From: an uncultured Candidatus Saccharibacteria bacterium
GTDB lineage: Bacteria; Patescibacteriota; Minisyncoccia; Phycocordibacterales; UBA918
Direction: 5' to 3'
Assembly: GCA_964350985.1 (NCBI GenBank)
Contig: CAYGLK010000002.1
Coordinates: forward strand, 229,406 to 293,405
Length of the DNA: 64,000 bases
Part shown: one piece after another, positions 6,211 through 27,328 of the stretch
Numbering within the stretch: the stretch's first letter is position 1
Layout: every line of letters starts with the position of its first letter
Position numbers and translations under genes: made by a program
The notes under the pieces: model-generated
The model's database searches: none
The model's input: only the letters and a program-made list of their open reading frames with translations
Told to the model about the DNA's origin: nothing

Positions 6211-7134
6211 TTACTTTCTTTTACCATGGAATTTTTTGTGGACTTCGCGGAGGTGGGAGTCAGTGACGTGGGTATAGATTTGGGTGGTGCCGATATTTGC
6301 GTGCCCAAGGAGAGCTTGGACTGAACGTAAGTCAGCGCCATTACTCAAAAGGTCAGTAGCAAAACTGTGACGAATAACGTGCGGAGTAACCTTGCGAGTG
6401 ATACCGGCTTTAGTGGCGTATTGTTTTAAAACTCTTTGCACTGTTCGTGGAGTGATCCGCGAGTCCTCTCCAACATGAGCTTTTTTGCCGTAGCGGACAA
6501 AGAGCGCGTCACTCATATCTTTACGTCCGGCCAAATAATTTTTGATCGCTGCTTTCGCGTCATCTGAAAGAAAGACAACTCGCACTTTGTCGCCCTTACC
6601 GCGGACAGAAAATTCATCTCGAGTGAGGTCTACATCATCAATTGAAAGGGAACAGAGTTCAGAGACACGAAGACCAGTTGAAAACAAAAGCTCAAGAATT
6701 GCTAAGTCACGCTTGCCTTGAAGTGAGTCTGTTTTAGGAGCAGCCATCAAGCGCTTTAGTTCACTATCAGAAATGAGATCAAGTGATCGCTCTGGAACTT
6801 TAGCTAGTTCGATTCTCTCTGGAGAGAGGGAAGCAATGCCACGCTTACGTAAAAACTTAAGGAACGCCCTGAGTGCAATCAGGTAATAATTCTGGGTACG
6901 GCGTTTCATTGGTTCACGCCGGCCACCTACCTTACTTCCAGCTTGGCGGTTTAGATACAAACGAAACTCACGCACCTGTTCCTCAGTCAAATCAGCTGGG
7001 TCTGTGATCTTAGCAAAATTGAAAAACCGATCTAAATAACGCTCGTAATTAAGGACAGTCTTAACACTACGCCCTCTTTCGATTTCGAGGTACTCAAAGA
7101 ATTGTCGTTTCAGCTCTAAAACATTCATGTTCAT
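6211..7134 (-). CDS. tyrosine recombinase XerC/XerD
   Basis: C-terminal 'HVIRHSFATDLLSNGADLRSVQALLGHANIGTTQIYTHV' with the R-H-R-Y catalytic pattern. Confidence 0.8.
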   Translation of the reverse strand: MNMNVLELKRQFFEYLEIERGRSVKTVLNYERYLDRFFNFAKITDPADLTEEQVREFRLYLNRQAGSKVGGRREPMKRRTQNYYLIALRAFLKFLRKRGIASLSPERIELAKVPERSLDLISDSELKRLMAAPKTDSLQGKRDLAILELLFSTGLRVSELCSLSIDDVDLTRDEFSVRGKGDKVRVVFLSDDAKAAIKNYLAGRKDMSDALFVRYGKKAHVGEDSRITPRTVQRVLKQYATKAGITRKVTPHVIRHSFATDLLSNGADLRSVQALLGHANIGTTQIYTHVTDSHLREVHKKFHGKRK

Positions 7135-7191
7135 ATATTATACAGATATTTTAAGCACATTTTTGACAAACAGATAAAAGAAATGTCTGAC

Positions 7192-7220
7192 TTGCATTAA
7201 TTTAAATTCTATGCTATAGT
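7192..7220 (+). promoter_or_regulatory. sigma70-like promoter of rpsO (TTGCAT-17-TATAGT)
   Basis: Hexamers with 17-nt spacing about 90 nt upstream of the rpsO start. Confidence 0.45.
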
Positions 7221-7306
7221 GTTTGGAACCTTCGCGGTTATCACTGCGAGCTACTTATAAGCACTTCGGTGCGTATCTATATAAGCCAGCCGCTTCACAC
7301 ATATTT

Positions 7307-7573
7307 ATGTTAACAAAAAGAGTAAAAGAAAATGTACTAAAAGAAACTAAGCGTCACGTTAGTGATACTGGTTCTCCGGAAGCACAAATCGCCCTACTGA
7401 CTCGTCAGATTGAAGAGCTTTCTAATCACTTGCGCAAGCATAAGAAAGATTTTCACTCACGACGTGGTTTGCTACAAATGGTAGCTGACCGAAGAAAGCA
7501 CTTGAAGTATTTAGAGAGAAAAGATGAGAAATCATACAACTCTCTAATCAAGAAGCTTGGTCTAAAGCGATAA
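7307..7573 (+). CDS. rpsO: 30S ribosomal protein S15
   Basis: '[13 protein letters not shown]...[19 protein letters not shown]' is the classic S15 sequence. Start moved to the internal ATG at 7307. Confidence 0.9.
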
Positions 7574-7578
7574 TACTG

Positions 7579-7609
7579 ATGCTCCACTATGGAGCATTTT
7601 TATTTTTTC
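7579..7609 (+). terminator. Rho-independent terminator after rpsO
   Basis: atgctccactatggagcat hairpin followed by a T-run. Confidence 0.7.
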
Positions 7610-7741
7610 AGTTATAGTTAAACCATCTTCAACAATCCGTCCCGACCAAGTTTCACAACTTTTCGGAAGACCTTAGTTGGAGATAGTGTAAGTCGCGAAG
7701 TGTTTTTATAAAAAAGTTTTTAATATTATTTTAATAAAATT

Positions 7742-8338
7742 ATGAGTGTTATACGTCACCCAGAACAAAGGGTTGCCATTTTGATAGATACCCAAAATCT
7801 CTATCACAGTGCAAAAAATTTATACAAATCAAAAGTGAATTTTGGAGCAGTAGTTAAAGCTGCCTTAGGAGGTCGAAAATTAATTCGTGCTGTTTCTTAT
7901 GTAGTGAATACTGAGAGTGGAGAAGAGTCAGCCTTTTTCGAAGCTTTAGAAAAAATTGGTATCGAAATCAAAACCAAAGACTTACAAATATTTTATGGCG
8001 GCGCAAAAAAAGCTGACTGGGATGTTGGTCTTGCTATTGATGCTATCAAGTTAGCTAACAAAGTTGACGCTGTTATTTTGGCAACTGGCGATGGAGATTT
8101 TATTCCACTAGTTGAGTACGTCAAAAACCAAGGTTGTCAGTTTGAAGTAATTACTTTTGGCCGATCCGCTTCTTCTAAACTACGAGAAGTAGTTGATGAC
8201 TTTATCGATATGGATAAAAATCCAAGTGAGTTTTTGATTGGTTATAAGACCAATAAAAAGAGAAACAATAACAACAATAGTAACAATCTTCGAAAACAGA
8301 TTAAGAAAATTGTTGGCACTGATACTGACGATATTTAG
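7742..8338 (+). CDS. NYN/LabA-like domain protein
   Basis: 'VAILIDTQNLYHSAKN' and 'ATGDGDFIPLVEY' are PIN-like NYN motifs. The tail is N-rich. Confidence 0.6.
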   Translation: MSVIRHPEQRVAILIDTQNLYHSAKNLYKSKVNFGAVVKAALGGRKLIRAVSYVVNTESGEESAFFEALEKIGIEIKTKDLQIFYGGAKKADWDVGLAIDAIKLANKVDAVILATGDGDFIPLVEYVKNQGCQFEVITFGRSASSKLREVVDDFIDMDKNPSEFLIGYKTNKKRNNNNNSNNLRKQIKKIVGTDTDDI

Positions 8339-12717: not shown

Positions 12718-13659
12718 ATGAGCATCGCTTTAGTCTACACAATCCAACCCCATGTACTATCCGGAAGTGTTGTCAGAATTGAAGCTGATTTATCTAGAGG
12801 GCTCCATTCTTTTTCTATTGTTGGCTTAGCTGGTAAAGCTATAGAGGAATCCAAAGATCGTATCAGTAGTGCTATCAAACATTCTGGTTTTGAGTCACCA
12901 AAAAGTAAAAACCAAAAGATCACCATCTCTCTTTCTCCGGCTGATTTGAAGAAAGAGGGTCCACTTTTTGATCTACCGATTGCTCTAGCCTATCTAGATG
13001 CAGCCGGAGAAATTTCAATTCCTGAAGATACAATTTTTGTTGGGGAACTAGGCCTAGACGGAGACCTAAGGGCAGTTAGAGGAGTTTTAAATATTGTGAC
13101 AGCCGCCAAAGAAAGTGGTTACTCAAAAATAATAGTTCCAGGAGCAAACGCAGCCGAAGCAGCCTTGGTTGAAGGAATTGACGTCTATGCTGCTAAAAAT
13201 CTAAATGAAGTTATTTGTCACTTAAGTCCTTCCAGACCAGATTTTAAATTACTCACTATTGAGCCATTAACTCAAGTTGATGAAAATAACTGGACTGAAG
13301 GTACTGTAGTTCTTGAGGATATCAAAGGACAGGAAAGTGCTAAGCGAGCACTAGTTATTGCTGCCGCTGGTAGACATAATGTTATCTTGGTTGGTCCGCC
13401 AGGAACAGGGAAGACGATGTTGGCTAGAGCTTTCCAGGGCATTCTGCCACCCTTATCGAGAAGTGATACTTTGGCCGTCACTGCGATTCACTCAATCAGT
13501 GGGCAAGAAATATCTCTAAGTACCAAGCCACCTTTTCGTACTCCGCACCACACTGCTTCACACACCGCTTTAGTCGGAGGTGGAACTAACCCTAAACCAG
13601 GAGAGGTCACTTTGGCACATAAAGGAGTCTTGTTTATAAAGTGTGTCCCACAAAACTAA
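12718..13659 (+). pseudogene. comM: comM/yifB Mg-chelatase-like AAA ATPase, N-terminal part, interrupted by the integrated element
   Basis: Lon-like N-domain plus AAA Walker A 'GPPGTGKT'. It ends '...GEVTLAHKGVLFIKCVPQN*' just before the conserved LDELPEF block. Confidence 0.85.
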
Positions 13660-13661: not shown

Positions 13662-14036
13662 TTACGGATTACAGTTTAAATACCTGTATGCACGAGGACC
13701 ATCGCCAAAAGCCATTGTGATTTTCTTGTTCATATACTTATCTCGCACCTCTTTAGGTGCAATTTTGCCTTCGAATTCCCATTTTGTAGGTTCAAACTTA
13801 TTTTTTTTCCAGCTATCTATAATAAATACACCCTTGACTCTATTCTGGTAAATAGCCAGTGCGTATTCTGCCAAATCTCTTGACTCCCAATTATTGCCGA
13901 CATCCCATGCTTGTTTGGCTATATCATAAATAGTATTCTCATCTCCGTCCATATATGGCTTATAGGTTTGAGCGATACTCACCAGAATCACCCTATCTTC
14001 TATGTCTTCCATCCTAATTTCTGTGAGAGCTTCCAT
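13662..14036 (-). CDS. hypothetical protein (element cargo)
   Basis: 124 aa, no recognisable motif. Its stop lies 2 nt from the comM' stop. Confidence 0.45.
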   Translation of the reverse strand: MEALTEIRMEDIEDRVILVSIAQTYKPYMDGDENTIYDIAKQAWDVGNNWESRDLAEYALAIYQNRVKGVFIIDSWKKNKFEPTKWEFEGKIAPKEVRDKYMNKKITMAFGDGPRAYRYLNCNP

Positions 14037-14223
14037 ATTTTCATTGTAGCAATCATCTAGAACAAAGTCATTTAAGAATACGCTACAATCATTAGAATGG
14101 TTTCAAAACTAAGAGCATCAATAATTATAGTAATTGTAGGTATAGTGTCTTTCTGGCTAGGAATGCAGGCTGTGATTCAAGTTCCTTGTGATTGTATTTC
14201 TAGGTTTGCACTGCTATAGAGTT

Positions 14224-14895
14224 TTAGTCGACCCTTTCTTTTTCGACGAAGTGTAAATAGTCCATAATGCCGTATCCCTTCAGATGTTCATAAGGGTTAC
14301 AGAATCTGTACCACGGTTCAGAGTGATGCCATACACCATCTTCACGCTCCTCTTTTACCGATTGTGAATCAGTTAATTTCTTCGGAGGAAGAAACTTCTT
14401 ATTATCTTTTACTAGAAATATATAATAGTGCACTTTTCCATTTTCTGTTGGTACGATCCGTGCATTTAAAATTCCTTCTTTAACCCACTTAGTTTGAGTA
14501 GCTTTCTTTATCCCGAATCTACTTTCTAACTCGTAAGGACTATAACGATTGTCACTTGTCTTAGCAATTGAACCAGGAATTTTTCGTTTATCTATAGCTT
14601 TCTGGCATGTAATACACTTGATGCCCCATTTGTCATACCAGTTAGTATCCTCTCTTGTTGCAGAACCACATACTGCACAGTTACGACCATTGCCGGGTAG
14701 AGCAAAACCCTTTGGTTCTTTTTCTAATCTTCTGTCCCATCCGTCTTTATCCATCTGACCCTTCATAACAATCTCAAAGAGACCAACGAGTCTACGTCCA
14801 GATTCTGCTGCTTCTTCCCATGACACTTCTTTACCACTTTCTTTTTCCATCAAGTCTTTGAACTCCTGAATACTTTTATCAGATAGTTGAGCCAT
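14224..14895 (-). CDS. hypothetical zinc-ribbon protein (element cargo)
   Basis: 223 aa with 'CAVCGS...(17)...CITCQ' CxxC-CxxC. Confidence 0.5.
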   Translation of the reverse strand: MAQLSDKSIQEFKDLMEKESGKEVSWEEAAESGRRLVGLFEIVMKGQMDKDGWDRRLEKEPKGFALPGNGRNCAVCGSATREDTNWYDKWGIKCITCQKAIDKRKIPGSIAKTSDNRYSPYELESRFGIKKATQTKWVKEGILNARIVPTENGKVHYYIFLVKDNKKFLPPKKLTDSQSVKEEREDGVWHHSEPWYRFCNPYEHLKGYGIMDYLHFVEKERVD

Positions 14896-15129
14896 AGCAT
14901 TTATTTAAAACTTTTAAATAAACTCCACGTTGTTACTAATAGTATAACCTTATTGATGTGGGACATTATCTACAAAACATGTCTCTCTAAAACGATAATC
15001 AAGTATTAATCTTCTTGTTAACCTCTAATAACCTTTTTAAAAAAGGTACGGAGTGAATAAATAGAAACCTTTTCTAGGACAGGTACTAAAACACCTGTCT
15101 TACTAAATGTCCCTAAAAGCAAATATGCT

Positions 15130-16710
15130 TTACTCTGTAATGTTATTTTCAACATGTAACACTTTCTTTAATGTTACATTATATCCATATCCAACAAGTC
15201 TTCGCTTTGCATTACGTAAACTAACCTTACTAAAAAACGGTAAACTTAAGTCTTCGGTACTGTTGCTAATAATCGCATACACTATTTCATACTCGGGTGT
15301 AATTGGACGAGCTTTTGAGTCAGCCAGTTTATGACTATCTGGTAGTTTAGTATTTAATTTTTCTCTAAATGCTTCGTCACTAACAAAGAGTTCCCCAGAA
15401 ACAACACCTTGAGTAAACAGATGGCTAAGAACACTAGAGCCACCATATCTTTTTACATGAATTAGTTTTTTGTCAGCAGTTAATACGTCACAGAATTCAA
15501 TACTGCTATGACCTCCACCGTAGGTGACTAGTTGTCCATCCATACAACATGAACCTGTAAGGGTAGCTACTGCATGCGAATTGTAGTCACCCTCGTTTTT
15601 AAATTCACAGTCTGGCATGGTAACAGAAGATTCAGTCATGTTCTGAAAGTCAATTTCAACTGCTTGAGAAAAGCTATCTGCTATTTCATACCACTTACTA
15701 TTATTTAGGATGTAGAGCTTATTGTTTAATCTGCACTCAGCATATAGACACTGATATGCAGACCATGAATGCAATGTGTCATCTGTAGAAGCTGAAATTG
15801 CAAAAATACGAGAATGTTTTAATTCATCTAAACTTGGACTCCTTTCTAGTTCCGATAGATATGTTGGCACATCCAAGTCATCATGTAGCTCAGCCTGCTT
15901 TGCTCTAAGATATTTAAAACCACTAATGTCAGTCCAATCTACAACTTCTGGTACAGCCATCCAAATATTGTCTATTTCTTCGTTGCCAATTTTGACTACT
16001 AGCTCATCATTTAACTGGCTCTGAATTGCCTTGTCCCGAACTTCGGCAATTTGGTCAATCCAATCAAAGTCACGTTTATAGTCCTCACTCTTATAACGAG
16101 TGTAGCTGTGCTTTAAAAAATCTTGTATATCGTTTACGTCTGTCTTAACAGAAGCATATAAGGCATCTTTTCCAGATACAGTTTTTCCAAAATGTACGTC
16201 ACGTGATTTCCCAGTAACAGAACTAATTAAGTCTTGTTCAATATCAATGCCAAATTCAAAAGGACTTACATCCTTACTCATTTGTTCTCGACTATGTTTT
16301 GGTATTGACCCAAGAGTTGTTTTATCAATACTTCTGAAACCACTTATATCAACTGAATTCAAAACTATTTTTAAACCAAACCGTTCTTCTATTACACCCT
16401 CTTTAATCATATGCCGACCAAACCCGAATGTCACAACAAAGAATCGGACACCATCTATTGTTTCGATAGATGTTACAAAAATACCTCGTGCACTCGATGT
16501 AAATATATTTTGATTATCTAGAGTTTGTCCAAAGAAGTTTTCTATCCAGTCAGGTCTACTTGGGTGTGACTCTTCAAACACAAAAAACCCTTGGTCGTTT
16601 ATCGCGACAGGTTGTTGTGTGCTTTCAACTATATCTTCCAAGTCTGTAATGCCCGCTTTTACTAGGTACACACTTAGTCGATTAGTCTTTGGTTCTACAC
16701 TGGTGGGCAT
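15130..16710 (-). CDS. large hypothetical protein (element cargo)
   Basis: 526 aa with no Walker or nuclease motifs seen. The size and N-terminus 'LSVYLVKAGITDLEDIV' vaguely recall the sporadically distributed TIGR04141/DUF6119 family. This is unverified. Confidence 0.5.
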   Translation of the reverse strand: MPTSVEPKTNRLSVYLVKAGITDLEDIVESTQQPVAINDQGFFVFEESHPSRPDWIENFFGQTLDNQNIFTSSARGIFVTSIETIDGVRFFVVTFGFGRHMIKEGVIEERFGLKIVLNSVDISGFRSIDKTTLGSIPKHSREQMSKDVSPFEFGIDIEQDLISSVTGKSRDVHFGKTVSGKDALYASVKTDVNDIQDFLKHSYTRYKSEDYKRDFDWIDQIAEVRDKAIQSQLNDELVVKIGNEEIDNIWMAVPEVVDWTDISGFKYLRAKQAELHDDLDVPTYLSELERSPSLDELKHSRIFAISASTDDTLHSWSAYQCLYAECRLNNKLYILNNSKWYEIADSFSQAVEIDFQNMTESSVTMPDCEFKNEGDYNSHAVATLTGSCCMDGQLVTYGGGHSSIEFCDVLTADKKLIHVKRYGGSSVLSHLFTQGVVSGELFVSDEAFREKLNTKLPDSHKLADSKARPITPEYEIVYAIISNSTEDLSLPFFSKVSLRNAKRRLVGYGYNVTLKKVLHVENNITE

Positions 16711-16837: not shown

Positions 16838-18613
16838 TTATTTTTTGTTGTACATACCAGGATTGTTTCTTAGTAAGTGAGCACTCCGTTGTTTCTCACT
16901 CAGTGTTTTAACGTGCAATATTAGTCTCATTTGACCGTTATTTGAGACTTCTGCTGGAGCTTCAGTAGGTACACTAGTTTTAGTTGGGAACTTAAATACC
17001 ACTTCTGCAAAGTTACTTTTGTGATGAAGTGTAATTCGTTCAATAAACAATCGGAGTATGTATTGCTTTTGCTCGTACGCGACATTGTCTAACTTACCAC
17101 TCAGTGTCTTAAACATTTCAGAGATAACCACGTCTCTATTCTTTTGTTCCTTTTTCTTTAAAAGAGTCTGGGATAGCTTTTGCTTTTGTATTTCCAGTTC
17201 TTTTTGTCGAGTGCGTTTTTCTTTCATCATTGACTCATAATCAGCCTGGCTTATGCCCATGTCAGTGAATGCTTTGACGATTCGTTGTTGTTGCTCTTTG
17301 TTTGTTTTGATTTGAGTATCAAGCCCAGTTATCTTCTTTACGGTTTTAGCTTCATTAGAATTTTTGAATGTATACTCTTCTAACTGAGGAATGGTGTTTG
17401 TTGGGTCCTTAAGGATTGAGACTAGCGTATCCCATATAGGTAATAACCTAGTTTCAGCACATTGCCCATGAACGTCATTCTGTTGACACTCGTCATTGGT
17501 TCTGTCGAGCGGTGCAACGTACGCATGATAGTACTTACCTAATGTTGGTGTTTTTAAGTCCTTCTTTGGTTTTTGATAACCACTTTGTAATTTACGACCA
17601 GTGTACCCAGAGTAAAGTAGTCCAGAAAAAAGATAAATTCTTTTTGCATTCCGTTTCTGCATGACTCGATTTTGTGTCAGTTGTTCAATGGCTTTTTCAA
17701 ACATATCACGAGTAATGATTGACGGTACATGTAACTCAATATGTTCACTTTTAGGTCGCTGGTGCTCTTTGTTTTCAATAGCATCGAGATACTTGAACGG
17801 TCGTTTATACTTGTTGTAGTAAAATGTGCCCGTGTACACCTCGTTTACTAAGAAACGATTAATTGTTCGTTTGTACCATTTTCCATTACGGATTTCATCT
17901 TTTGGTTCTTTGCCCTTTTCAGACTTGTGTGCGGGAGTGGGTAAGTTTAGTTCTATCGCTTTTCGAGTGATTTCACGAAGTGAACATTTTTCATAAACTA
18001 GCCACTCGTAGAACTGCTTGATTACCTCGGCTTCTTCTGGATGAAGAACTAATGTTTTAGTTTTTTTATCTATTCTATATCCATACGGTGGTACACCCGT
18101 TACCCACTTACCCTCACTAGCGGCACGTAATTTTCCACCCATCATTCTTTCTGCTATGAGTCTTCTTTCGTGATGGGCAAATGAAGCAATCATATGAAAC
18201 ATCAATTCACCATTTGAAGTTTCAGTTTCAAAATTTTCGGTAGCTGATTTAAAAGCAATACCATATTCTTTTAGTTGTTCTACTGCACCAATGACTTGTT
18301 TAAGATTGCGTGAAAATCTATCTAATCTGTAAACTAGCACGAGTTCAAATTCCTTTTTTTTAGCGGCTTCAAATAATTCATTCAGAGCAGGTCTACTTTT
18401 AATCGGCAGATTCCCAGAAAACCCACCGTCACAGTAAACATGGTTTTTATCCAGTTTAAAAGAGTGTGCCTCACACAAACGAGTAAGCATTTCCTCTTGT
18501 GATTTCAAGCTGTTACCGTGCTTAGCTTGCTCATCAGTAGAAACACGCAAATAGATTGCGACTTGTTTATTATTTACTATCGTTGGATAGGTTGTTTCAG
18601 TCAGTGTATTCAT
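16838..18613 (-). CDS. large serine recombinase (integrase)
   Basis: N-terminal resolvase catalytic motif 'VAIYLRVSTDEQ' with the Ser nucleophile. 591 aa with a recombinase domain, a Cys-containing zinc-ribbon region and a coiled-coil C-terminus. Confidence 0.85.
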   Translation of the reverse strand: MNTLTETTYPTIVNNKQVAIYLRVSTDEQAKHGNSLKSQEEMLTRLCEAHSFKLDKNHVYCDGGFSGNLPIKSRPALNELFEAAKKKEFELVLVYRLDRFSRNLKQVIGAVEQLKEYGIAFKSATENFETETSNGELMFHMIASFAHHERRLIAERMMGGKLRAASEGKWVTGVPPYGYRIDKKTKTLVLHPEEAEVIKQFYEWLVYEKCSLREITRKAIELNLPTPAHKSEKGKEPKDEIRNGKWYKRTINRFLVNEVYTGTFYYNKYKRPFKYLDAIENKEHQRPKSEHIELHVPSIITRDMFEKAIEQLTQNRVMQKRNAKRIYLFSGLLYSGYTGRKLQSGYQKPKKDLKTPTLGKYYHAYVAPLDRTNDECQQNDVHGQCAETRLLPIWDTLVSILKDPTNTIPQLEEYTFKNSNEAKTVKKITGLDTQIKTNKEQQQRIVKAFTDMGISQADYESMMKEKRTRQKELEIQKQKLSQTLLKKKEQKNRDVVISEMFKTLSGKLDNVAYEQKQYILRLFIERITLHHKSNFAEVVFKFPTKTSVPTEAPAEVSNNGQMRLILHVKTLSEKQRSAHLLRNNPGMYNKK

Positions 18614-22656: not shown

Positions 22657-22906
22657 AAATTTTGGTATTACCTAGTAAACCCCAGAGCAGAACATACAAA
22701 AAGCCCACTACCAGGTGGACCGAAGTCCTACTAAGGTTTCCCCTAATAACGTTGAAGACGCAACCTGATAATGGGTTGTTTGTCTTCAACGATTTTCGAC
22801 CATACCTCTGTCTCACGACAAAGGGTTAGGTCATTGATATTCAGTTGTCATCCAATAGTATTTCTTTTGATCGTTAATGTAAACCTTGCCGTTAACTAGA
22901 TTGTGG

Positions 22907-22948: not shown

Positions 22949-23944
22949 ATGATAAGTTCAGCTTTAATCACTGTGGAAGAGGCTGCTGATTTGCTCAAAG
23001 TAAACACGATAACAGTGTACAGGAATATTAAAAACGGCACATTAAAAGCTAAGAAAAATGGCAAGACCTACTCTATTGTTCTAGAAGATTTAGTTAATTT
23101 TATTAACGTTAAAAATATGAAATCTTCTCAAACTACTTCAAGGAAAGCAAAACCATTCTTAAAGTGGGCGGGTGGAAAAAGACAACAGGTTGATCTTCTG
23201 TCAGAGCAGATACCAGTTGTAATAAATGGAACTTACCACGAACCATTCCTAGGAGGTGGTGCGTTGTTTTTCCATTTGCAACCACAAAAGGCGAAACTAT
23301 CTGATTCAAACTCAGAGTTGATTAATGCTTACACAGTAGTGAGGGATAGTGTGGATGACCTGATTGATTCACTATCTATACATAAGAATAATGAAGACTA
23401 CTATTACGAAACCAGAAGTATAAACCCTCTTGATCTAGACCCTATCAAGCGTGCAAGTAGAACAATTTACTTAAATAAAACCTGCTTCAATGGCCTCTAT
23501 AGGGTAAACAAGAAAGGTATTTTTAACGTACCTTTTGGAAAGAAGAAGGGAGAATTTACATACGATACTGCCAACTTGAGACTAGCAAGCGAAGCTCTTA
23601 AAAATGTTGAATTGACTGTTAGTGATTATAAAGAATCCCTAAAGGGTATAAAAAAACAGGATGTTGTTTACATAGACCCCCCGTATTATCCAGTAGGTGG
23701 CTTTGCCGACTTTCAAAGATATACAAAAGAGTGCTTCTCAGAACATGATCACGATCAGTTGTTTAATCTTTTTAAAAAGATTTCTGACAGAGGGGTGACA
23801 ATAATCCAATCTAATTCGAATTCAAAATACATACTTGATAAATACTCAGAATTTCACATGGATATTATTGATGCCAAACGATTAATTAGTAGCAACTCTG
23901 CAACCAGAAATAGTAAGGATGTAATTATTTACAGAAAAAAATAG
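22949..23944 (+). CDS. N6-adenine DNA methyltransferase (Dam/D12 class) with N-terminal excisionase/MerR-type HTH
   Basis: 'FLKWAGGKRQQVDLL', 'EPFLGGGALFF' and 'VYIDPPY' are Dam motifs. The first ~50 aa, 'VEEAADLLKVNTITVYRNIKNGTLKA', form an HTH. Confidence 0.8.
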   Translation: MISSALITVEEAADLLKVNTITVYRNIKNGTLKAKKNGKTYSIVLEDLVNFINVKNMKSSQTTSRKAKPFLKWAGGKRQQVDLLSEQIPVVINGTYHEPFLGGGALFFHLQPQKAKLSDSNSELINAYTVVRDSVDDLIDSLSIHKNNEDYYYETRSINPLDLDPIKRASRTIYLNKTCFNGLYRVNKKGIFNVPFGKKKGEFTYDTANLRLASEALKNVELTVSDYKESLKGIKKQDVVYIDPPYYPVGGFADFQRYTKECFSEHDHDQLFNLFKKISDRGVTIIQSNSNSKYILDKYSEFHMDIIDAKRLISSNSATRNSKDVIIYRKK

Positions 23945-23945
23945 T

Positions 23946-24989
23946 ATGACTCCAGATACACAAAAGCAGTTAAAAAAATATCCAGGCACCCGTTTTATGG
24001 GTAGTAAATATAAAGTACTACCAGAAATAGAGAAAGTATTAGCTGACTTGGAATTTGATACAGTACTCGATGCTTTTTCTGGAAGTGGTTGTGTCTCATA
24101 TCTGTTCAAAACGATGGGAAAAGAGGTTCATAGCAATGACTTTATGAAGTACTCGCACAGCACATCTAAGTCTCTCATTGAAAATAGCGATTTTCTCTTA
24201 AAAAAAAGTGACATTGAGTATATTACTGCTATAAACAGCAAGAGTAATTTCATTTCAAAGAAGTTTAAAGACTTATATTTTAGTGACGAAGATAATAAAT
24301 TTCTAGATTCTGCTTTTAGTAATATACACAGCATTAGAAACCCTTATAAAAAATCAATGGCTTTAGCTTCAATCTCAAGAGCTATGATTAAACGTAGACC
24401 AAGAGGTGTGTTTACATACGTAGGTAATAAATTTGATGACGGTAGAAAGGATTTAAATCAAAGTCTTGAACAACACTTCATCGATAATGTCGCTATTTTT
24501 AATAACGCAGTTTTTGATAATGGCAAAGAAAATTACTCATATCATGGAGATATTTTCAGTCTTGAATTAGAAAAACAAATGGACCTTGTTTACATGGATC
24601 CTCCATATCTATCAAAAAGTTCTGATAATGATTATGTGCGTCGATATCATTTTGTAGAAGGTTTTGTTGATGGGTGGAAAAATGTTGAAATTGACGAAGC
24701 TACAAAAACAAAAAAGTTTCCTTCGTACAAATCCAGATTTGGTTCAAAAAAGACAATAGACTTAGCTTTCTTTGACATCTTTAAAAAGTTTGAGAAAAGT
24801 AATATCTTGTTATCCTATTCATCAAATTCAATACCAGACAAAGATACTTTGATCGAGATGCTGGCAAAAACTCACAAAACAGTTAATGTATATGAGATAG
24901 ACCATGTCTACTCTTTTGGTACTCATAGTCACAAGAAAAATAACACCACAAACAGAGTCAAAGAATACTTCTTCTTAGCAAAACCTTAA
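23946..24989 (+). CDS. second N6-adenine DNA methyltransferase (D12-class-like)
   Basis: 'FMGSKYKVLPEI', motif I 'DAFSGSGCV' and motif IV 'VYMDPPY'. Confidence 0.7.
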   Translation: MTPDTQKQLKKYPGTRFMGSKYKVLPEIEKVLADLEFDTVLDAFSGSGCVSYLFKTMGKEVHSNDFMKYSHSTSKSLIENSDFLLKKSDIEYITAINSKSNFISKKFKDLYFSDEDNKFLDSAFSNIHSIRNPYKKSMALASISRAMIKRRPRGVFTYVGNKFDDGRKDLNQSLEQHFIDNVAIFNNAVFDNGKENYSYHGDIFSLELEKQMDLVYMDPPYLSKSSDNDYVRRYHFVEGFVDGWKNVEIDEATKTKKFPSYKSRFGSKKTIDLAFFDIFKKFEKSNILLSYSSNSIPDKDTLIEMLAKTHKTVNVYEIDHVYSFGTHSHKKNNTTNRVKEYFFLAKP

Positions 24990-24991
24990 AT

Positions 24992-26713
24992 ATGTCAAAA
25001 GTCTGGAATATTGGAAATACAACAGTTAGAAATCCTAAAAGGATTGAAATGGGTCTGAGAGTCATGAACGAGCAGAACCTTTTTGGTTGTATGGAGGGAG
25101 CTGAAAATGAAGAAGCGTTAACAAAGGCATTAGTAGATTCTGGAGTTGTAGATTCTAAATCTGAGGGTAAAAGTGCAGCATGGTTAGGTAGAAAATGGAG
25201 GAGTGTAATGGTCAAACTTGGCTTCTTAACTAGCAATAAATATAGGATTCAAGGAAAGACATTTAAAGTAGAAGATCTGGAGGGTTACACTAGTTTTTCA
25301 AAATCTCCATATGTATTGACGCCAGCAGGTCAACGCATGGTTAGCTCTACTACACAGGGTGAGGTTAGTGACGTATTTCTTAAGCAAATGATTAAGCATG
25401 CAGTTCCTAACCCTTCAGAAACAGCTAGGGATTTTGACTCGCACATAAAACCGTTCATACTTTTCTTATCTGTATTGAGATCGATTCAAAATGAAGGTAA
25501 GGGTCTAAACCAAAAGGAGATTGCTATTTTTATACAAAAGATTCAGCCTCACAAAGAAGGTTTGTCAGAAGTAATAGTGAAAGAAATTTTAGATTATCGA
25601 GAGAAAAGAGATGCACTTGATTCCAAAAGAACTAAGAGAGAATTTGACCAAAGTTTACTAGAAAAAAATGCAGAAGAAATGTCTATTAAGTCTACTACTC
25701 CATTAGACTATGCTGACACTACAATCAGGTACTTCTCGATGACAGGTCTGTTCGAAATGATTGGAAGCAGAGTAAATATTAAAGAAGAAAAGAAAGATTT
25801 GGTTGATGATATATTGGAATCAACTAGCATTGAAAATATATTAACCGGTGTTGATTACCTAAATGCTTTTTACGGAAATATACCTGTTGTTAAAAATGAG
25901 GAAGTTTCTGCCAGAAAAGAGTACTCCAGTCTTCTTAGAAAAGCCAAAGCATTTGATTTAAAGTTACCTACTATTGAAGTTGATCCAACTTTGGAGGAAC
26001 TAAAGACCGTAACTTTTAATCTGGAAGAACAAATACTATTAGCGGTTGAAGATAAATTTGCCTTAGAACAGCAAACAGATATTGAGATAGAAAAAATTAA
26101 ATACCATATATCAAAAATAGCTAATAAAGACAGGGATTACTTTAGATCAATCGTAGATATGCCAGCAAACTTGGAGTGGGTGGTATGGAGAGGGTTTCTT
26201 TCGATTGACCACATTACTTGTCCCATTCAGGAAACAAGAGGATTTCCTGTAGATGCAGATCTTAAACCTCGATATCCAGCACCTGGAGGAAGAGCAGATA
26301 TGCTCTTTGAATTTGAAGATCATTATCTTGTAGTTGAGGTTACCTTGACTACATCAACGAGACAATATATTGCTGAGTGTGAACCAGTTAGGAGACATGT
26401 TGCTGAAGAGAGAGGAGGTAAGCCAGTATATGGACTATTTATTGCTCCTAGTTTGGATAATAATTTCCTACACGGGTTAAGAGAGTACTATAAAGGTGAC
26501 GATCTAGTTCAACTGAAAATTCTTCCTTTGACCCTAAACGATTTTGAAACCATTATTGATCTTCATAAGACCAGTAAACTGAATCCTTCAGATATTAAAG
26601 AGTTAGTATTAAAGGGGTCTGATGAGAAAATTACAAATGCTATTGAATGGAGGCAACACATTCAGGATACACTTGCTGGTTGGGTATCTGAAAGAACAAA
26701 AGAAGTTGTATAA
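24992..26713 (+). CDS. putative Type IIS restriction endonuclease, AlwI/BstNBI/PleI family
   Basis: 573 aa lying directly after two m6A methyltransferases. Blocks 'TTIRYFSMTGLF', 'LEWVVWRGF', 'GGRADMLFEFEDHYLVVEVTLTTS', 'EPVRRHV' and 'LFIAPS' match recalled conserved blocks of the AlwI family. This rests on memory, not a search. Confidence 0.55.
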   Translation: MSKVWNIGNTTVRNPKRIEMGLRVMNEQNLFGCMEGAENEEALTKALVDSGVVDSKSEGKSAAWLGRKWRSVMVKLGFLTSNKYRIQGKTFKVEDLEGYTSFSKSPYVLTPAGQRMVSSTTQGEVSDVFLKQMIKHAVPNPSETARDFDSHIKPFILFLSVLRSIQNEGKGLNQKEIAIFIQKIQPHKEGLSEVIVKEILDYREKRDALDSKRTKREFDQSLLEKNAEEMSIKSTTPLDYADTTIRYFSMTGLFEMIGSRVNIKEEKKDLVDDILESTSIENILTGVDYLNAFYGNIPVVKNEEVSARKEYSSLLRKAKAFDLKLPTIEVDPTLEELKTVTFNLEEQILLAVEDKFALEQQTDIEIEKIKYHISKIANKDRDYFRSIVDMPANLEWVVWRGFLSIDHITCPIQETRGFPVDADLKPRYPAPGGRADMLFEFEDHYLVVEVTLTTSTRQYIAECEPVRRHVAEERGGKPVYGLFIAPSLDNNFLHGLREYYKGDDLVQLKILPLTLNDFETIIDLHKTSKLNPSDIKELVLKGSDEKITNAIEWRQHIQDTLAGWVSERTKEVV

Positions 26714-26745
26714 GTTTGTGGGACTCTTCTTATGGATGAGTTTCC
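26700..26745. repeat. attR-like junction (element arm AAGTTTGTGGGACTCTTCTTAT / comM side GGATGAG)
   Basis: The comM frame resumes at ATG 26732 ('MDEFPEF'). TTTGTGGGAC is the inverse of GTCCCACAAA at the left junction. Confidence 0.6.
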
Positions 26746-27328
26746 TGAATTTGACAGACGCTCTCTTGATGCCCTACGTCAACCACTGGAGGACAGGATG
26801 GTAAGTATTTCTCGCATTCAAGGTACCGCACTTTTCCCAGCTGATTTTATTTTAGTAGCAGCTATGAATCCTTATCGTGGGCAAGAAGATGGTACGACCA
26901 ATCTCGCTCGGGCTATGCAAGAAACTTACAAAGGAAAAATATCAGGACCGATTTTAGACAGAATTGATTTGTGGATTGAGGTACCTCATGTTGATTATGA
27001 AACTCTCACAAACCTCAACCGAAAAAGTGACGAGACGAGGTATGCTCGTGACCAGATTAAAAAAGCCCGCAGCTTACAAGAAGAGAGACTCCGAGATAGA
27101 GGAGTTGTTACTAATGCCGAGATGACTAGTCGCGACATCGACTACTGCATTAAACTGAGTCCGGAAGTATCTGAGCTACTAAAAATGTCGTCAGAAAAAT
27201 TAAACCTCTCTCCCCGCAGTTACCATAGACTAATTAAAGTCGCCCGCACTATTGCTGACCTAGATGACCAGGAAGAGATCGAAACAAAACATGTACTTGA
27301 GGCCCTTCAGTATAGAATAACAATATAA
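26732..27328 (+). pseudogene. comM: comM/yifB C-terminal part (Mg-chelatase ChlI C-terminal domain)
   Basis: 'DEFPEFDRRSLDALRQPLED...VAAMNP' continues the ComM sequence exactly where the N-fragment stops. Confidence 0.85.

Follow-up and report, generated by a model that had tools for sequence, protein, structure and literature searches.

Organization of the integrative element

The window analyzed here, a 64-kb stretch of DNA from a genome of Patescibacteria type, as judged from homolog labels (Patescibacteria, Paceibacterota), contains a comM gene that is cleanly split by an integrative element of ~13.1 kb encoding a serine recombinase and a PrimPol replicase (Table 1). At the left junction the N-terminal comM ORF continues into the element, where it meets its stop codon, and the element half-site found there has an inverted partner, TTTGTGGGAC, at the right junction. 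Three ORFs of 124, 223 and 526 aa occupy the recombinase-proximal (left) end of the element, while its other end is taken up by a restriction-modification (R-M) system; no type I R-M system is present in the 64-kb window. The initial annotation had placed three co-directional ORFs between the left junction and an integrase gene, in what it took to be the accessory or cargo territory of a mobile element. Each of the three ORFs is found at the coordinates given there, the integrase is a 591-aa large serine recombinase, and the assignment of the region to cargo territory is supported by the analyses described below. The three ORFs are moreover real genes and not chance reading frames, because all of them have homologs: at least 2244 at E<=1e-3 among 8000 scored candidates for the 526-aa protein, 132 for the 223-aa protein, and nine close homologs plus 863 remote representative clusters, recovered by profile search, for the 124-aa protein.

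Table 1. Coordinates of the genes and sequence features discussed in the text (positions within the window)
Feature	Position	Strand	Details
comM, N-terminal part	12718-13659		Mg_chelatase profile positions 2-115
attL, left junction inside comM	13621-13656		Host half ends GGAGTCTTGTTTAT; element half-site AAAGTGTGTCCCACAAAAC; read from sequence
124-aa ORF	13662-14036	-	
Extended -10-like box, TGCTACAAT	14043-14051	-	Ends 6 nt upstream of the 124-aa start codon (ATG)
223-aa ORF	14224-14895	-	
Promoter-like region of the 223-aa ORF	14941-14965	-	-10-like TATACT at 14941-14946; TGTCCCACA at 14957-14965
Stem-loop GACAGGT-N8-ACCTGTC	15078-15099	-	30 nt past the DUF6119 stop codon
526-aa ORF (DUF6119/TIGR04141)	15130-16710	-	
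Large serine recombinase, 591 aa	16838-18613	-	Resolvase E 5.8e-37; Recombinase E 3.4e-17
R-M system: two D12 methyltransferases and AlwI-family type IIS endonuclease	22949-26713	Opposite to DUF6119	~6 kb away from DUF6119
attR, right junction	26712-26735		Element half-site GTTTGTGGGACTCTTCTTAT; host comM resumes with GGATGAGTTTCC; read from sequence
comM, C-terminal part	26732-27328		Mg_chelatase profile positions 112-206

The cargo slot and its occupants

Comparison with sister elements reveals that the gene for the 526-aa protein, a member of the DUF6119 family, is swappable cargo in a defined slot extending from the recombinase gene to a conserved hairpin. The recombinase gene constitutes the proximal border of this slot, and the stem-loop downstream of DUF6119, with a computed RNA folding energy of -25.1 kcal/mol (z = -3.68), constitutes its distal border. 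An identical copy of the hairpin is found in the nearest sister element (loci L005 and L006), and in a further element (L179) the hairpin lies directly 3' of a different cargo gene; it bounds the slot irrespective of what the slot contains. The hairpin is also the probable terminator of the backbone operon. The slots of sister elements hold a DUF5343 protein (the PADLOC candidate PDC-M34A), a PIN toxin, an AbiJ-like Abi_C protein, a UvrD/GajB-like helicase together with a SAM synthetase, or an EMARD_N protein, the latter occupying the slot of L179 in place of DUF6119.

This exchange of cargo bears directly on whether DUF6119 serves the element itself, be it as an accessory of DNA processing or recombination that combines an RdgC-like DNA-binding part with a nuclease, or as an addiction toxin that stabilizes the island. 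We regard such a role as quite unlikely. Sister elements with the same recombinase/replicase backbone carry unrelated cargo in the slot, so DUF6119 is dispensable for the maintenance of the element, and most genomic copies of the gene are located away from recombinases (only three of 79 loci have one adjacent). Plasmids and phages, too, seldom carry DUF6119 (29 of 72,556 plasmid records and 1 of 50,697 phage records), and no conserved antitoxin-like partner was found next to it among the surveyed loci.

Independent inheritance of the three genes

The initial annotation considered the trio a candidate for an undescribed system. In such a system, the Zn-ribbon/HTH protein and the modification reader described below would sense or regulate and the DUF6119 protein would act as effector. 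The three genes do share strand and order, they recur in the same order and with similar gap lengths in L005/L006, and the pairing of a reader domain with a nuclease is functionally sensible; furthermore, one DUF6119 homolog and one 223-aa homolog are each listed with a longest contig of 3180 bp and may share that contig. A single system is nonetheless very improbable, since closely related elements carry each of the genes in the absence of its partners. L001, inserted at the same comM site and sharing the backbone, encodes a 223-aa homolog (77% identical) and carries neither DUF6119 nor the 124-aa gene; L179 (recombinase 68%, PrimPol 56%, 124-aa homolog 76%) has neither DUF6119 nor the 223-aa gene; and L007-L012 harbor 124-aa homologs with neither of the two partners. 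Co-inheritance does not extend to diverse genomes either: homologs of the 223-aa protein were detected in none of the 79 DUF6119 genome loci, where a single weak 124-like match was obtained, and DUF6119 was detected in none of the 40 long loci carrying 223-aa homologs.

The layout of the region likewise departs from that of a tight operon. The intergenic gaps amount to 187 and 234 bp, conserved promoter-like sequences with -10-like boxes precede the 223- and 124-aa genes, and the stable hairpin lies between DUF6119 and the 223-aa gene. The trio was seen together only in L005/L006, besides the window, and because this co-occurrence is limited to one narrow element lineage, it is explained by shared descent. 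The three ORFs thus appear to be separate, independently inherited modules, not components of one system, and we analyze them individually in what follows.

The 526-aa protein and its predicted nuclease fold

The likeness to the TIGR04141/DUF6119 family that the initial annotation had faintly perceived in the 526-aa protein is confirmed by full-length matches to PF19614 (481.3 bits, cutoff 27; residues 12-517, profile positions 1-523 of 524) and to TIGR04141 (497.1 bits, cutoff 35; profile positions 1-516 of 516). The family comprises thousands of clusters from Acidobacteriota, Proteobacteria, Planctomycetota, Bacteroidota, Clostridia and candidate phyla, and the identity of up to 57% observed between phyla indicates that it has spread horizontally while being strongly constrained. 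An IMG/VR search yielded three DUF6119 loci and two loci of the 223-aa family. The window protein retains every column that is invariant in 120 homologs, as well as all columns that are at least 97% conserved in a set of 73 cross-phylum sequences sharing 34-57% identity with it. Residues E373, D391, E405, D408, H418, K420 and Q434 reach this level of conservation and, together with C407, make up the near-invariant residues of the C-terminal region. No function or phenotype for DUF6119, TIGR04141 or PF19614 was found in the searchable literature; since the family lacks a described function, membership names the 526-aa protein without explaining it.

In a confident predicted model, a large alpha/beta region makes up the N-terminal part of the protein and is followed by a PD-(D/E)xK-like domain at the C-terminus (~residues 370-520). 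In this domain the model recovers the alpha-beta-beta-beta-alpha-beta core fold of the PD-(D/E)xK superfamily and places the conserved E373, D391, E405, D408, H418 and K420 on the appropriate helix and strands; Q434 likewise lies on the predicted elements of the domain. The register of the motif, E405-F-C407-D408 ... H418-V-K420, is not the textbook (D/E)xK, and these residues are to be read as candidate catalytic residues only. The initial annotation had seen no PD-(D/E)xK signature in the protein, which holds at the level of sequence but not at the level of the predicted fold. Sequence-profile search of the PDB returned just one chance match (E 1.4), alignment with HSDR_N domains in hhalign gave a probability below 1%, and a Foldseek search of the PDB with the predicted model gave nothing at E<=0.001 (best E 0.011). 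The N-terminal ~350 residues, taken whole, matched no solved structure, and the long family variants P0227 and P0210 were searched for informative domain fusions, with none found. PADLOC-DB v2.0 contains no model with a significant match to either the 526-aa or the 223-aa protein; a match of DUF6119 to NsnC (E 0.022) was not significant and was treated as noise.

Genomic neighborhoods of DUF6119

In 33 of the 79 DUF6119 genome loci an R-M component lies within four genes of DUF6119, and in 19 at least two type I subunits do so. In 14 loci the gene is flanked on both sides by hsd genes of the same strand, typically in the order hsdM-hsdS-DUF6119-hsdR and also between hsdM and hsdS. Copies embedded in type I R-M operons include those of Roseibium litorale (L028) and of the Leisingera (L077) and Chitinophaga (L074) neighborhoods; a phage copy is that of Pseudomonas phage vB_PaeS-D14B (L093). 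Other neighbors include type III Mod/Res, AbiEi/Eii, AAA_15/21 and RhuM genes. No annotated defense neighbor is present in over half of the loci surveyed, a tally in which defense neighbors represent a lower bound because only recurrent neighbor clusters were annotated. The DUF6119 gene of the window lies outside any R-M operon, in the cargo slot of the element. The initial annotation had put forward a defense or accessory role for the trio, to be abandoned should homologs never co-occur and never sit in mobile or defense contexts; homologs do occur in both kinds of context, and the surroundings of DUF6119 in other genomes render a defense role plausible for this one protein.

The frequent proximity to R-M genes raises the prospect that DUF6119 is an R-M accessory or guardian akin to PrrC in EcoprrI, latent or cooperating with the R-M enzymes and firing upon their inhibition, with the AlwI-family type IIS system at the other end of the element as its partner here. 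Consistent with such a role, 14 to 19 of the 79 copies sit within type I R-M operons and are transcribed in the direction of the operon, some copies are located downstream of type III Mod/Res or other methyltransferases, and the window element does carry an R-M system with two D12 methyltransferases and an endonuclease. A precedent for embedded genes with their own defense role is provided by TgvAB, a GmrSD-like DUF262/DUF1524 pair located within a type I R-M operon of Vibrio cholerae VPI-2 (PMC11411939). Over half of the DUF6119 loci, however, have no detectable R-M neighbor, and the R-M types that do occur nearby vary (type I, type III and type II/IIS), a diversity that is hard to reconcile with one specific physical partner. 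In L005, moreover, the DUF6119 protein is 81% identical to that of the window, yet the R-M system is a different one (BsaWI-type). On balance, we deem a guardian role unlikely.

The 124-aa protein and the CMoRE sensor domain

The 124-aa protein is homologous to the C-terminal modification-sensing domain of CMoRE (PD-T4-3) but stands free, with no nuclease domain attached. CMoRE is a single-component type IV restriction endonuclease of the GIY-YIG type (PDB 9U75, 9U7U); its C-terminal domain binds 5hmC and glucosyl-5hmC, and the sequence and structure searches of the authors recovered no homologues of this domain (PMC12923530). The PADLOC check recommended in the initial annotation identified the relationship, matching the 124-aa protein to PD-T4-3 over the sensor part (E 4.3e-10, profile positions 132-193 of 256). 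The protein also matches phrog_5356 (E 1.4e-9), and a profile built from its nine homologs matches residues 153-247 of PDB 9u75/9u8d (E 9.9e-8) and 9u7u_A (E 5e-5). A match to Arf (E 0.047) was treated as noise. Multi-domain relatives align to residues 8-123 of the query. A GIY-YIG domain is present in 50 of the 70 relatives longer than 200 aa, other relatives are fusions to HEPN, HNH, HSDR_N or SRA domains, and roughly one third of the best 150 of the 863 clusters are stand-alone proteins no longer than 140 aa. The close family was not found in viral contigs.

The 124-aa protein itself has no GIY-YIG match and no adjacent GIY-YIG ORF; it comprises the sensor domain only and is therefore not a CMoRE system. 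The sole ligand contact named in the text of the CMoRE paper, the main-chain O of Y127 (PMC12923530), falls in the poorly aligned N-terminus relative to the 124-aa protein. Upstream of the gene, the TGCTACAAT box has been retained amid diverged flanks in L005 and L094, two sister loci, suggesting that the 124-aa gene has its own promoter and is transcribed as a leaderless or very short-leader mRNA.

The 223-aa protein of the element backbone

The 223-aa gene is a backbone gene of prophages and integrative elements of candidate phyla (Patescibacteria), and the length of its product is conserved among homologs. Both features that the initial annotation had recognized in this protein are upheld: the CxxC-17-CxxC ribbon, formed by C73xxC76 and C94xxC97 and invariant in its four cysteines in 113 homologs, and the Trp/His-rich C-terminus, which is in fact rich in Trp, His and Tyr. 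The protein is laid out as an N-terminal helical hairpin, the Zn-ribbon, a putative winged helix of the excisionase/MerR type and a C-terminal beta-hairpin region; evidence for the HTH is weak, the window protein itself falling below Pfam detection. A sequence-profile search of the PDB with the family produced only chance matches to Cys-rich proteins.

In the promoter-like region of the gene, TGTCCCACA is located 10 nt upstream of TATACT, at the -35 position, and is the same 9-mer that occurs in the terminal recombinase half-site of the element. Both blocks are kept in L005, where the surrounding sequence has diverged, and this placement and conservation of TGTCCCACA are suggestive. Across the window the TGTCCCACA/GTCCCAC motif is not enriched above chance, and a consensus scan of the region for promoters and terminators gave counts no higher than those of shuffled sequence. 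The probable role of the protein is that of a regulator or of a recombination directionality factor.

Discussion

The joint explanation that we favor, with moderate confidence, is that the element carries three separate modules: DUF6119 as nuclease or defense cargo, the 223-aa protein as a DNA-binding component of the backbone, and the 124-aa protein as a modification reader. As its predicted model indicates, DUF6119 would most likely operate as a stand-alone, metal-dependent nuclease of the PD-(D/E)xK type, with a large N-terminal region that would sense or bind nucleic acid. By analogy with the usual role of genes embedded in type I R-M operons, it would function as a defense or exclusion factor against phages or other mobile genetic elements. 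The 223-aa protein would bind DNA, most likely as a transcriptional regulator or recombination directionality factor, and the 124-aa protein, as its sequence relationships suggest, would most likely bind modified DNA bases without cutting, be it as a reader for R-M control, as a trans-acting sensor or as a shield against type IV restriction. We consider it improbable that, within this lineage of elements, recognition of modified DNA is provided in trans by the free-standing reader of CMoRE type.

More broadly, and tentatively, as the odds are somewhat below even, DUF6119/TIGR04141 might represent an unrecognized and widely transferred class of single-protein nuclease defense with an N-terminal sensor, repeatedly recruited to type I and type III R-M operons, where it would add a second line of defense, and to mobile-element cargo hotspots, among them those of the candidate phyla with reduced genomes. 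We encountered neither the nuclease-like fold nor the R-M embedding of DUF6119 in the searchable literature. The analysis offers a testable function for the family, that of a nuclease whose candidate catalytic residues are named and whose defense role would be linked to R-M, and a concrete candidate for defense catalogues that goes undetected by present tools such as PADLOC. It also outlines, in Patescibacteria elements, a defined cargo hotspot, with the recombinase gene on one side and the conserved hairpin on the other, at which defense-type genes are exchanged, which should be useful for mining defense genes in unculturable organisms. Finally, the sensor domain of CMoRE, reported as having no homologues, emerges as a broad family, free-standing or fused to several nuclease types, with a bearing on modification-dependent restriction and on the proposed use of the domain as a 5hmC reagent.

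Comparison with known systems

In sequence, nothing sets the 526-aa protein apart from the DUF6119 (PF19614)/TIGR04141 family of 'sporadically distributed' proteins. Relative to the PD-(D/E)xK effectors of defense systems (HamA of Hachiman, Shedu SduA, Can2, Cas4) and to the catalytic domains of type II/IIS restriction endonucleases (FokI, R.BspD6I), DUF6119 has no detected sequence similarity, an unusual motif register and no conserved helicase or ATPase neighbor. With PrrC, the anticodon nuclease of EcoprrI, it shares the position within R-M operons observed in its relatives, and many DUF6119 genes resemble TgvAB in the same positional manner (PMC11411939); neither likeness extends to a sequence relationship. 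The 124-aa protein shares homology with the whole C-terminal modification-sensing domain of CMoRE, whereas two parts of CMoRE are missing from it, the autoinhibitory acidic loop and the GIYxY-YIG nuclease domain at the N-terminus, so it could not be a restriction enzyme alone. The 223-aa protein is much larger than the winged-helix proteins of the excisionase/AlpA/MerR-BldC group (HTH_17, MerR) and the directionality factors of serine integrases; what it has in addition is a helical hairpin, a Zn-ribbon of the Cys4 type and, at the C-terminus, a conserved aromatic module.

Element architecture and insertion in comM

The three minus-strand open reading frames lie in a ~13.1-kb insertion that interrupts comM, dividing its product into an N-terminal part of 313 residues that stops at 13659 (Mg_chelatase profile positions 2-115 of 207) and a C-terminal part of 198 residues that restarts at 26732 (positions 112-206). 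The junction sequences constitute an attP-like imperfect inverted repeat (GTTTGTGGGAC ... GTCCCACAAAAC at the element ends) flanking a core that reads TTAT in the window and TTTCT in the related element L001. All three frames were recovered at exactly the coordinates first assigned to them. The initial annotation had taken the region for cargo territory of a mobile element in a reduced genome; our analysis supports the former view, and the latter remark is consistent with the labels of cargo-gene homologs (Patescibacteria, Paceibacterota and similar).

The element family targets an identical comM codon region (GVLF/xDEFPEF, the slash marking the junction) in both orientations, with the 124-aa gene adjoining the N-terminal half of comM in the window and the C-terminal half in the sister element L005. 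The restriction-modification (R-M) system at the corresponding place differs wholly among elements (Dcm-type methylase with NgoFVII in L001, BsaWI-type in L005). L010, an element with a 124-aa homolog, is integrated beside a tmRNA gene (17780-17920) and not in comM. Within the window element, a match to the LOOT RNA family (Rfam RF03000, function unknown) reaches 70 bits, where the gathering score is 46.4; all eight relatives examined have one too (64-87 bits). Eight of the nine elements have it on the coding strand of the backbone operon, 52-61 nt ahead of the first gene, and in L004 a gene follows after 4 nt. The RNA resembles a conserved leader or regulatory element of these Patescibacteria serine-recombinase elements.

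Features of the element and of related loci (L numbers; all other positions refer to the window)
Feature	Position	Strand	Details
124-aa ORF	13662-14036	-	
223-aa ORF	14224-14895	-	
526-aa ORF (DUF6119)	15130-16710	-	
Stem-loop	15078-15099	-	GACAGGT-N8-ACCTGTC, 30 nt past DUF6119 stop
9-mer TGTCCCACA	14957-14965	-	
9-mer TGTCCCACA	13644-13652	+	
9-mer TGTCCCACA	26717-26725	-	
Left junction	13621-13656		...GGAGTCTTGTTTAT/AAAGTGTGTCCCACAAAAC..., read from sequence
Right junction	26712-26735		...GTTTGTGGGACTCTTCTTAT/GGATGAGTTTCC..., read from sequence
Large serine recombinase			591 aa
PrimPol/AAA_25 replicase			604 aa
Small genes of unknown function			n = 3
R-M system, type IIS-like	22949-26713	+	opposite strand to cargo genes
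HTH_17-fused D12 adenine methyltransferase			331 aa, element R-M
Second D12 methyltransferase			347 aa, element R-M
AlwI-family type IIS endonuclease			573 aa, element R-M
LOOT RNA	22717-22832	-	
LOOT RNA in relatives	L001 12988-13113; L004 13698-13826; L005 2392-2510; L007 1991-2111		
LOOT RNA in relatives	L010 12891-13005; L096 507-624; L097 1691-1814; L179 1724-1840		
comM insertion site in relatives	L005 11520-11560; L001 9150-9180 and 20330-20345		

The three genes are separate modules

The proposal that the three genes form a single system is contradicted most strongly by sister elements that lack one or two of them, and also by the local anatomy. L001 shares with the window element the comM target, the PrimPol-recombinase backbone and a 223-aa homolog (77% identity), and has neither DUF6119 nor the 124-aa gene; DUF5343 is encoded beside its recombinase, a PIN toxin gene precedes the 223-aa gene, and its R-M system is a different one. 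L179, with a shared backbone (recombinase 68%, PrimPol 56%) and a 124-aa homolog (76% identity), lacks the 223-aa gene and encodes an EMARD_N protein in the DUF6119 position, and the 124-aa homologs of L007-L012 belong to other serine-recombinase elements, from which both partners are missing. Among 79 genomes, no 223-aa homolog and a single, weak 124-like match fell within 8 kb of DUF6119, and none of 40 long metagenome loci with 223-aa homologs contained DUF6119. The one relative seen to have the complete trio is L005/L006, the nearest sister element (DUF6119 81% identical), so shared descent suffices to explain the co-occurrence. Local anatomy agrees with separate genes: the intergenic gaps measure 187 and 234 bp, a hairpin follows DUF6119, and -10-like boxes precede both the 223-aa and 124-aa genes, being kept while their surroundings drift. 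The three genes are thus not one system.

The hairpin, a stable stem-loop (-25.1 kcal/mol, z -3.7), is kept in L005 (10097-10118), L006 (5637-5658) and L179 (9611-9632), in the last directly 3′ of the unrelated EMARD_N gene. It marks the distal edge of an exchange slot that opens at the recombinase stop codon, giving the order recombinase, swappable cargo slot, hairpin, backbone 223-aa gene, optional 124-aa gene and att. In sister elements the slot holds DUF5343 (PADLOC candidate PDC-M34A), a PIN toxin, an AbiJ-like Abi_C protein, a UvrD/GajB-like helicase with SAM synthetase, or the EMARD_N protein. The L097 slot contains a SAM riboswitch followed by the SAM synthetase gene and the helicase (6951-7064 and 7118-8053).

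The 223-aa protein as a backbone gene product

The 223-aa protein itself matches nothing in Pfam, NCBIfam, PADLOC or PHROG. It belongs to a tight family of ~220-aa proteins (132 matches, labelled almost entirely Patescibacteria; two matches in IMG/VR) with four invariant cysteines and a conserved aromatic C-terminal motif, and its structure model is very confident (pLDDT 94.2). Some of its relatives match HTH_17 (24 of 113) or MerR (10 of 113). Recurrent neighbours include N6_N4 methyltransferases (43 loci, the L004 copy adding a ParB_N domain), serine recombinases (23), a small-terminase-like HTH protein (22), a large-terminase-like protein (16) and a LexA/S24 repressor (11), with variable genes between this conserved block and the 223-aa gene. 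These recurrent neighbours place the gene in the backbone of prophages and integrative elements from candidate phyla, and with modest confidence we consider its product a regulator or recombination directionality factor.

The promoter-like region ahead of the 223-aa gene has, at its -35 position, a copy of the 9-mer TGTCCCACA from the left terminal half-site, and L005 keeps this copy; the motif's window-wide count shows no enrichment above chance. The repetition hints at control of the gene by a protein that binds att, be it the recombinase or another.

Many homologs (L098-L172) lie in prophage-like regions with a recurrent block of serine recombinase, large-terminase-like, small-terminase-like HTH and N6_N4 methyltransferase genes, a LexA/S24 repressor being nearby; these may be temperate Patescibacteria phages that are poorly represented in IMG/VR. 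In L180 (1048-1720), a homolog beside an intact 125-aa gene is split into two frames (residues 1-91 and 91-223), the result of a pseudogenizing frameshift or else of faulty assembly.

DUF6119 as a candidate defence nuclease

The 526-aa protein had been tentatively likened to TIGR04141/DUF6119, correctly, as full-length matches demonstrate (E 5e-149 and 4.7e-144, respectively). The family is large and unusually conserved, with 2244 significant homologs among 8000 scored candidates. The closest genome matches are from Acidobacteriota (up to 57% identity), and matches of 35-50% identity extend across Proteobacteria, Planctomycetota, Bacteroidota, Nitrospirota, Clostridia and many candidate phyla, a spread that fits horizontal transfer. 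The literature searched contained no paper giving DUF6119/TIGR04141 a function, and the protein matches none of the PADLOC models.

Its AlphaFold model, built with 120 homologs, is confident (pLDDT 88.4, pTM 0.80); Foldseek comparison with the PDB returned nothing at E ≤ 0.001. Conservation peaks at residues 400-450 and 476-500, coinciding with a predicted helix-strand-strand-strand-helix core. Across 73 sequences 34-57% identical to the window protein, E373, D391, E405, C407, D408, H418, K420 and Q434 are at least 97% conserved, all within the peak stretch and the helix and strand immediately preceding it. This coincidence of conserved residues and predicted core is good evidence for a PD-(D/E)xK-type domain in the C-terminal part. 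Two reservations are the non-canonical register of the candidate motif and the absence of any match to HSDR_N nuclease domains in a profile-profile comparison. The initial annotation, which saw no PD-(D/E)xK signature, therefore holds at the motif level but not at that of the predicted fold.

We clustered the ORFs around 79 DUF6119 loci and annotated the recurrent clusters. The chief neighbours are HsdM (23 loci), HsdS (19) and HsdR (14). At least two type I subunits lie within four genes of DUF6119 at 19 loci, and at 14 the gene sits strictly between same-strand hsd genes, usually as hsdM-hsdS-DUF6119-hsdR. Type III Mod/Res genes are immediately upstream in two loci (L047, L048), and further neighbours include N6_N4 methyltransferases, AbiEi/AbiEii, AAA_15/21 ATPases and RhuM. 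R-M components occur no more than four genes from DUF6119 at 33 or more of the 79 loci, a lower bound because annotation was limited to recurrent clusters. With no conserved partner across the 79 loci, DUF6119 behaves as a solo gene. Few plasmids (29 of 72,556 records) or phages (1 of 50,697, the gene being flanked there by two integrase genes) encode it, and IMG/VR yielded only three loci.

A portable sensor domain

The 124-aa protein matches phrog_5356 and the PADLOC PD-T4-3 model (E 4.3e-10, profile positions 132-193 of 256), and a profile of nine close homologs matches the PDB crystal structures 9U75/9U8D (E 1e-7) and 9U7U/9U7Z (E 5e-5). In a full HMMER scan the domain turned up in no fewer than 863 representative clusters, and 50 of the best 150 are free-standing proteins of at most 140 aa. 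A LEM-3-like GIY-YIG domain is present in 50 of the 70 proteins that exceed 200 aa, and HEPN, HSDR_N, HNH or SRA domains are present in a few. Free-standing copies and varied nuclease fusions together portray the domain as a portable reader, often encoded alone. Relatives P0250-P0399 include many free-standing proteins of ~110-135 aa, and fusions to HEPN_Swt1, HSDR_N, HNH, SRA and GIY-YIG.

In L010-L012 the gene downstream of the homolog, 49 bp away, encodes a type II restriction endonuclease. Judging from the geometry, excision would leave the 124-aa gene and the AlwI-family endonuclease gene in convergent orientation on either side of attP in the circular element. The most economical reading is that the protein would bind modified DNA without cutting it; it could serve R-M control as a reader, act as a trans-acting sensor or shield against type IV restriction.

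Comparison with known systems

A gene lodged within a type I R-M operon is typically a defence module in its own right, PrrC being one example. TgvAB of Vibrio cholerae VPI-2 is another (PMC11411939). Together, R-M embedding, defence-type slot cargo and the predicted PD-(D/E)xK-type fold make a nuclease-type defence or exclusion factor, whose trigger, substrate and phenotype we infer, the best-supported mechanism for DUF6119. It would act as a single-gene nuclease defence, next to a reader domain (124-aa) and a putative element regulator (223-aa). We thus regard DUF6119, a family that is catalogued but uncharacterised, as a credible though unproven defence nuclease; that it typifies a new, widespread R-M-associated defence class is a tentative proposal, which we judge somewhat improbable.

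The structures matched by the 124-aa profile are those of CMoRE, a type IV restriction enzyme in which an N-terminal GIY-YIG domain cleaves DNA and a C-terminal domain binds 5hmC and glucosyl-5hmC (PMC12923530). No homologues of the C-terminal domain were found in that study (PMC12923530), a statement that the present family of at least 863 clusters goes beyond. Compared with CMoRE, the 124-aa protein equals the entire C-terminal domain and nothing more.
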